This document shows, piece after piece, positions 52,603-53,241 of a DNA stretch of 64,000 nucleotides. Under the pieces are notes generated by a model. It had not been told where the DNA came from. It saw only the letters and a list, made by a program, of their open reading frames with translations, and did no database searches. Made by a program: the position numbers and the translations under genes. This stretch comes from Escherichia coli (GTDB lineage: Bacteria; Pseudomonadota; Gammaproteobacteria; Enterobacterales; Enterobacteriaceae). The stretch lies in assembly GCF_044324785.1 (NCBI RefSeq), contig NZ_CP172127.1, one strand, 5' to 3'. Position 1 is the first letter of the stretch; every line of letters starts with the position of its first letter.

Positions 52603-53019
52603 TCAAACCATCACCAGCGATAACTCTTTGCCAAGCGCCTTAGCCGCAAGCTGGACGGCGTCGATTTTTGTCGCATGGTGCAAGTTAAATAAGCGAGTAA
52701 TCTCCTGTTTAGGTTTGCCAATTCGTCTGGCTAACTCTTGCTGAGTGATTTCTGACTGTAAAAAAGCATTTAACAGCAATACCTTAGAGGCGACGCTCAA
52801 AGGTACTTCAATAAAGTGATCGTGACTATTTAATGGCGAAGGTAAAGGGATAAGCTCGTTATCTTCAAAATAAAAATCAAATGCGGTCAGTAAAGCATCT
52901 TTTGCCGCTTCCATCGCTTCAGCGACAGTTTCGCCCTGCGTCAACGCTTCAGGGATATCCACAAAAGAAACCATATAACCGCCTTCCGGCGCGGGTGTAA
53001 GAGTGACGGGATAACGCAT
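52603..53019 (-). CDS. hicB: HicB antitoxin, 138 aa (alternative start 53040)
   Basis: MRYPVTLTPAPEGGYMVSFVDIPEALTQGETVAEAMEAAKDAL... Confidence 0.85.
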   Translation of the reverse strand: MRYPVTLTPAPEGGYMVSFVDIPEALTQGETVAEAMEAAKDALLTAFDFYFEDNELIPLPSPLNSHDHFIEVPLSVASKVLLLNAFLQSEITQQELARRIGKPKQEITRLFNLHHATKIDAVQLAAKALGKELSLVMV

Positions 53020-53064
53020 AATTTCGACTGTCTCTCGCATGTCATTAACCTTTCTAATTGGCGA

Positions 53065-53241
53065 TTAACTCAAACCGAGTTGTTTCAGGATTGCTTTACG
53101 CAATGGTTCTTTAATCTCATCGCAGGGGTGACGCGGCATGACACTGCGCCTCCCATGAAACCTGAGTTTCAAATGGTTGCTGCCATTCGCTACATCGACG
53201 CCCTGAGATTCGAGCCAACGTCTGAACTCGCTTTGTTTCAC
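53065..53241 (-). CDS. hicA: HicA mRNA interferase toxin, 58 aa, GTG start
   Basis: Read from DNA: (V)KQSEFRRWLESQGVDVANGSNHLKLRFHGRRSVMPRHPCDEIKEPLRKAILKQLGLS; not in track (<60 aa). Confidence 0.85.
   Translation of the reverse strand: MKQSEFRRWLESQGVDVANGSNHLKLRFHGRRSVMPRHPCDEIKEPLRKAILKQLGLS

Follow-up and report, generated by a model that had tools for sequence, protein, structure and literature searches.

Does a 58-residue open reading frame that begins with GTG, and is therefore absent from a track restricted to ATG starts, encode the toxin of an intact toxin–antitoxin module, and how much of such a module is already accounted for by published work? The frame lies on the minus strand of the window, by which we mean the whole 64,000-nucleotide stretch of Escherichia coli DNA analyzed here. 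An earlier note, made from the sequence, had read the frame and the gene that follows it as a hicAB type II module in toxin-first order, with a GTG-initiated hicA of 58 codons on the minus strand. This reading is borne out by the list of open reading frames, which holds two adjoining, uninterrupted minus-strand frames, 53065..53241 (GTG, 58 aa) and 52603..53040 (ATG, 145 aa). From sequence comparison, the region is almost certainly the chromosomal hicAB type II toxin–antitoxin operon of E. coli in its intact, K-12-type form. Its coding features are as follows.

53065..53241, minus strand: hicA coding sequence, GTG at 53241-53239, TAA at 53067-53065, 58 aa
53175-53173, minus strand: codon of the catalytic His23 of hicA, invariant in an eight-sequence alignment of relatives
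53020..53064, minus strand: spacer between hicA and hicB, 45 nt if hicB starts as annotated and 24 nt if it starts at the ATG at 53040
52603..53019, minus strand: hicB coding sequence as annotated, ATG at 53019, TGA at 52605-52603, 138 aa

The protein encoded by the GTG frame, MKQSEFRRWLESQGVDVANGSNHLKLRFHGRRSVMPRHPCDEIKEPLRKAILKQLGLS, matches the Pfam family HicA_toxin (PF07927) at 30.9 bits, above the cut-off of 27, its residues 5-57 covering model positions 3-58 of 58, and is 100% identical to chain A of PDB entry 6HPB over 58/58 residues. HicA proteins are described as single-domain proteins of 50-100 aa with an alpha-beta-beta-beta-alpha fold (PMC10865869), and the window protein, at 58 aa and identical to the crystallized 6HPB_A, agrees with that description in both size and fold. 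The literature on the identical K-12 protein presents HicA as a dsRBD-fold, ribosome-independent mRNA interferase (PMC8138530, PMC11594946, PMC6957337, PMC10865869) whose sole known catalytic residue is His23 (PMC8138530), and the RNase activity and growth arrest reported there would be expected to carry over to the HicA of the window. The second frame shows two Pfam domains, HicB_lk_antitox (PF15919), which spans residues 10-74 of the 145-aa frame and scores 32.8 bits (cut-off 27), and HTH_3 (PF01381), which spans residues 95-141 and scores 31.4 bits (cut-off 23), and its product is 100% identical to PDB entry 6U0I over 145/145 residues and to 6HPB_B/6HPC over residues 8-145. HicB is known as a fully folded antitoxin that covers His23 of HicA and dimerizes through its HTH domains (PMC8138530, PMC10865869). 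The NCBIfam HMM library gave no match to either protein, and Rfam found no RNA family in or near the hicAB locus.

A comparison with K-12 leaves little to distinguish the two loci. The K-12 hicA gene (b4532) is identical to that of the window at 177/177 nucleotides, as are the 228 bp 5' of hicA. The 417 nt of hicB contain seven differences, all of them synonymous and one of them in the stop codon, which is TGA in the window and TAA in K-12. Alignment with the reference HicA and HicB, which the earlier note had named as the check on its statement that both frames are intact, revealed neither truncation nor frameshift. In the spacer, there is a single A-to-G change at 53054. This change turns AAAAAGG in K-12 into AGAAAGG in the window, a slightly better Shine-Dalgarno-like sequence 10-16 nt 5' of the ATG at 53040. 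When 52400-53500 was used as a megablast query, 5,416 of the 5,426 complete E. coli genomes were matched, with hicB, hicA, ydcR, and yncJ as the features annotated beneath the match. The gene order in K-12 MG1655 is sutR-rlhA-yncJ-hicA(b4532)-hicB(b1438)-ydcR-ydcS, and the strains GDSC2227PM and N3 follow the same order. The locus is a known one: the proteins of hicAB, their structures, and the regulatory circuit are already in the literature, described for proteins of the same sequence and for the same hicA and 5' region.

The point at which the locus admits more than one reading is the start of hicB. The earlier note had placed a gap of 45 bp between the two genes, which is correct for the annotated hicB start at 53019 and does not hold for the first in-frame ATG, at 53040, from which only 24 bp separate hicB from hicA. 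The annotated start corresponds to Met8 of the 145-aa frame, and the codons in question are these.

53020..53040, minus strand: seven in-frame codons from the ATG at 53040, encoding MRETVEI, of a possible 145-aa HicB isoform

Translation of hicB could conceivably begin at the ATG at 53040 and yield a 145-aa protein, either alone or alongside the 138-aa isoform, with the spacer shortened to 24 nt. The frame is open to 53040 without a stop, the crystal structure 6U0I was built from a 145-aa HicB, and both an ATG at -21 and the seven-codon open frame are retained in L128 and L158, the two relatives whose layout is that of E. coli. The predicted Shine-Dalgarno pairing is weak at both starts (-3.4 kcal/mol at 53040 and -3.0 kcal/mol at 53019), so that the long form fares no worse than the short one. 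However, the 138-aa protein is the one annotated in RefSeq K-12 and by PGAP in GDSC2227PM and N3, and of 69 distinct related loci, 67 have a HicB that opens with MRYP(V/I) and no in-frame ATG 5' of it. Diverged HicB homologues also begin at the equivalent methionine, the Pfam HicB domain has residue 10 of the long form as its first residue, and the seven additional residues are poorly conserved where they occur (MRETVEI, MRDFEKI, and MRDFENP). We therefore consider translation from 53040 unlikely, and the comparison with relatives favors the annotated 138-aa start. As a separate observation, hicA and the long form of hicB share a reading frame across 53038-53067, with the TAA and eight sense codons between them, such that read-through of the hicA stop would fuse HicA to HicB; this arrangement is probably incidental.

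A second question is whether the operon could be a decaying remnant from which active toxin is no longer made, as deletion alleles of hicAB do occur in the species. The hicAB segment 52603-53300 was matched in 5,351 of the 5,426 complete E. coli genomes, and at least 80% of it was covered in 4,253 genomes (78%). In ~1,100 genomes (~20%), less than 80% of the segment is matched, and those listed have lost all of it except the 3' third of hicB. Uropathogenic strain 536 (UPEC 536) carries a ~445-bp deletion that runs from inside the candidate operator repeat into hicB, and its hicB is annotated as a pseudogene. Isolate F200 and genomes like it have lost 22 bp between two TGCG repeats, which frameshifts hicA and leaves hicB intact. 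These observations on deletion alleles concern positions 52842-53291 of the window and the loci L003 and L004. The existence of lineages of both types, the one with a 3' hicB remnant and the other with a frameshifted hicA, together with a literature value for HicA protein abundance that is very low (0.021 ppm; PMC9841429), could be taken as signs of decay. However, the window carries the common intact allele, in which both reading frames and the upstream region are preserved, as are the start codon of hicA, its Shine-Dalgarno sequence, and the His23 codon. Its hicA, upstream region, and both proteins are those of K-12, where experiments have shown HicA to be toxic and whose proteins have been crystallized, and the fact that all seven hicB differences are synonymous is what purifying selection predicts. 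A decayed state of this copy is accordingly very improbable.

There is next to no chance that the GTG frame is a fortuitous open frame beside an hicB that is alone real and serves as a stand-alone HTH regulator: although the frame is short, starts without ATG, and has a homologue left unannotated in some phage records, the reading is refuted by a HicA_toxin score above the Pfam cut-off, by identity to the crystallized HicA, and by conservation of the protein to ~50% identity, with His23 invariant, in many phages and plasmids.

With hicA established as an intact gene, its unusual start deserves closer attention. Nine codons 5' of the GTG the frame is closed by a TGA, and the interval contains no start codon; the next in-frame ATG of hicA is that of Met35, past the catalytic His23. 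The GTG is therefore the only start that would yield full-length HicA. Two features surround it.

53246..53251, minus strand: Shine-Dalgarno sequence GGGAGG of hicA, 4 nt 5' of the GTG
53238..53243, minus strand: AUGUGA context, an out-of-frame ATG followed immediately by TGA, overlapping the GTG start

The GGGAGG sequence is predicted to form a duplex of -11.1 kcal/mol with the anti-Shine-Dalgarno sequence, and a counterpart, GGAGG, is seen in relatives. A published table of GTG-start genes in an AUGUG context includes hicA along with lacI and rlhA, and its entry for hicA gives the Shine-Dalgarno sequence as GGAGG, an aligned spacing of 12, and no predicted start-site ambiguity (PMC9841429). 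The neighboring rlhA can also be observed in the window (53785-55788), where the open frame comprises 667 aa from a GTG at 55788 and the annotated gene 653 aa from 55746; read by eye, this annotated start is likewise a GTG, in an aATGTGa context.

How widespread the GTG start is among relatives depends on how these are collected. In a tblastn-based sample, made up of phage matches to HicA and of hicA genes adjoining plasmid matches to HicB, 8 of 11 relatives have a GTG start, and the elements that carry it come from Arsenophonus, Cronobacter, Mannheimia, Yersinia, Paraburkholderia, Enterobacter, and Klebsiella. Our first scan of viral contigs used a pattern that began with Met (ATG) and was thus biased, returning ATG starts by construction; it yielded 38 distinct ATG-start relatives that are 53-82% identical to the window protein. 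When the scan was run without residue 1, GTG was found in 77 of the 80 closest loci (77-88% identical), equivalent to 34 of 36 distinct proteins, although the sequences behind all these counts are mutually related and do not represent independent events. The GTG start is common to nearly all of the closest relatives, yet it is neither universal nor obligatory in the family, since ATG-start relatives exist and some of these are up to 82% identical. The start codon probably helps to hold translation of the toxin low. We also note that the record of Cronobacter phage ENT39118 leaves a GTG-initiated hicA homologue (L006 701-877) unannotated 5' of an annotated “HicB-like” gene, and that the record of Yersinia phage PY54 does likewise (L008 701-883). 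These unannotated phage homologues in RefSeq/GenBank point to a blind spot shared with the ATG-only track.

The regulation of hicAB has been worked out in K-12, where two promoters have been described. P1 carries a CRP-S site, depends on Sxy and CRP, and gives rise to an mRNA from which both hicA and hicB are expressed, whereas HicB represses P2 by acting at hicO, an inverted-repeat operator, and an excess of HicA relieves this repression (PMC11594946, PMC8138530, PMC6957337, PMC10865869). The operator is an inverted repeat bound by HicB dimers (PMC10865869), and the leader of the P2 transcript starts one base 5' of the hicA ribosome-binding site, with the consequence that HicB is made and HicA is not (PMC11878559). 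Because the 228 bp 5' of hicA are those of K-12, the published two-promoter circuit should apply to the window. The positions that we assign to its elements in the window derive from the sequence combined with secondary sources.

53274..53291, minus strand: perfect inverted repeat GTAAACA-ctaa-TGTTTAC, candidate hicO, the same in K-12
53260..53268, minus strand: extended -10 element TGaTATACT, candidate P2 promoter, from a motif scan
53312..53320, minus strand: extended -10-like element TGcTATTTT, possible P1 -10, low confidence, from the motif scan alone
53357..53372, minus strand: CRP-S-like 16-mer TGGAATCTTCCTTCCT, possible Sxy/CRP site of P1, low confidence

The inverted repeat at 53274-53291 is our candidate for hicO. 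A custom scan of 53000-53470, a stretch that includes the upstream region, found no other perfect inverted repeat whose arms reach 7 bp, and a search for inverted repeats with a minimum length of 8 found none. The repeat occupies the expected -35 region of the candidate P2, and HicB bound there would therefore block RNA polymerase. The candidate -10 element of P2, TGaTATACT, ends 8 nt before GGGAGG, which places the predicted transcript start 1-3 nt 5' of the hicA Shine-Dalgarno sequence and agrees with the reported position of P2. For P1, the assignments are more tentative. A CRP-S site has been reported upstream of P1 in the K-12 region, which is identical to that of the window (PMC11594946). 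The 16-mer TGGAATCTTCCTTCCT is the best match, a weak one at 7/10, to the asymmetric E. coli CRP-S motif TGCGA-N6-TTCCA, and it lies ~60 nt 5' of the start predicted from the TGcTATTTT element; scans near hicA with the symmetric CRP-S and the CRP-N consensus returned nothing convincing.

According to published work on identical proteins, the N-terminal domain of HicB, a partial RNase H fold, packs over the active site of HicA and so neutralizes it, and the HicB dimer binds DNA through its C-terminal helix–turn–helix domain. The K-12 circuit can be carried over to the identical sequence of the window. Transcription from the upstream, Sxy/CRP-dependent P1 would produce an mRNA from which both HicA and HicB are translated, and the downstream P2 would be held down by HicB on hicO. 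As P2 starts so near the hicA ribosome-binding site, its transcript is expected to yield HicB only. Excess HicA would strip HicB from hicO, and extra antitoxin alone would therefore be made.

Several further observations concern other parts of the window. A segment of ~1.46 kb at 16286-17749, between yddE and nhoA, is missing from the otherwise collinear strain N3 and holds two overlapping-type transposase frames, one of 176 aa with an HTH and the other of 240 aa with an integrase core, a pair typical of an IS3-family insertion sequence. Another segment missing from N3, of ~1.3 kb at 44198-45523, lies between yncL and patD; the C-terminal half of its 269-aa minus-strand frame (44493..45302), read by eye, resembles a hexapeptide-repeat acetyltransferase. 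The only Rfam match in the window is a SECIS_3 selenocysteine insertion element at 974-1032 on the minus strand (84.3 bits), which the collinear N3 alignment places within fdnG, the gene for the alpha subunit of formate dehydrogenase-N. Finally, ~22500-31100 contains two tandem, diverged copies of an Rhs core protein that are 77-90% identical; in N3, these are annotated as frameshifted RHS elements, and they adjoin a VgrG gene of a type VI secretion system.

For annotation, the outcome is that hicA, a small toxin gene whose GTG start hides it from an ATG-only track and whose homologues at least two phage records leave unannotated, is confirmed as a genuine, undamaged gene in the window. It adds no new biology of hicAB itself. 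The side observations, namely that the GTG start is common to nearly all close relatives, that an intercistronic hairpin is found in phage-borne relatives and not in the chromosomal locus, and that deletion alleles are frequent in E. coli, are modest additions that are not needed to identify the locus.

The closest known system is E. coli K-12 hicAB (hicA b4532, formerly yncN; hicB b1438, formerly ydcQ), which has in common with the window the toxin-first order, the GTG start, the 45-nt spacer, and the neighbors ydcR and yncJ-rlhA, and which has been classified as a class 3 hicAB, with an HTH-type HicB (PMC10865869). At a greater distance, Yersinia pestis HicA3B3, Burkholderia pseudomallei HicAB, and Streptococcus pneumoniae HicBA belong to the same families, with HicB acting on palindromic operators, and the HicB of B. 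pseudomallei differs from that of E. coli in having an exposed RHH DNA-binding domain in place of an HTH (PMC11594946). The stoichiometry of HicA–HicB complexes also varies by species, with heterotetramers, heterohexamers, and hetero-octamers described (PMC8138530). The HicA^T B system of the IncI2 plasmid p45 resembles the window in its toxin-first order and in autorepression by HicB (PMC11878559). However, it shares only ~20% identity with K-12 HicAB and has an RHH-type HicB. An intercistronic hairpin in this plasmid system, an internal intrinsic terminator specific to hicA, can set the ratio of the two proteins and raises toxin relative to antitoxin (PMC11878559), whereas the spacer of the window is without a hairpin. 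Structured RNA in the E. coli spacer was considered and rejected, as the folding z-scores of 0.24 and 0.32 are not significant, and a terminator scan of 52450-53550 found no terminator-like sites.

Nearer relatives are found in phages and prophages of Enterobacterales, in which HicA is 77-88% identical to that of the window (IMG/VR contigs L097-L176), and in Cronobacter phage ENT39118, where the identity is 70%. These Enterobacterales phage modules are like the window in having a GTG behind GGAGG, a toxin-first order, and a HicB that starts with MRYP, with a spacer of ~48-54 nt. They differ from it in three respects, as in 67 of the 69 distinct phage-borne contexts the hicA stop is followed immediately by a GC-rich hairpin (ccagcccttcggggctgg), and both the ATG at -21 of hicB and a -10 element right next to the Shine-Dalgarno sequence of hicA are lacking. 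The chromosomal locus of E. coli shows the opposite state for all three features, as do L128 and L158, the hairpin being missing from all three spacers. The spacers of relatives that contain the hairpin measure 47-54 nt, with a whole-spacer folding energy of -14 to -22 kcal/mol, and the three annotated hairpin-bearing relatives give folding z-scores of -2.6 to -3.5. By analogy with IncI2 plasmid hicAB, the hairpin of the phage-borne relatives may be a hicA-specific terminator (PMC11878559).

These differences lead us to a possibility that we hold only tentatively and with some doubt, namely that the chromosomal hicAB of E. coli descends from a phage-borne module through a rewiring that “tamed” it, with the hairpin lost, an antitoxin-only promoter gained, and the GTG retained. 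A hairpin between hicA and hicB would favor toxin over antitoxin. The chromosomal lineage, along with L128 and L158, would have lost it and gained the seven-codon in-frame extension of hicB, and the chromosomal -10 element abutting the hicA ribosome-binding site would give rise to antitoxin-only transcripts. If this were true, the features so rewired, in an evolutionary series that has no prior description, would combine with a GTG start in an AUGUGA start-stop context into a layered throttle on toxin synthesis.
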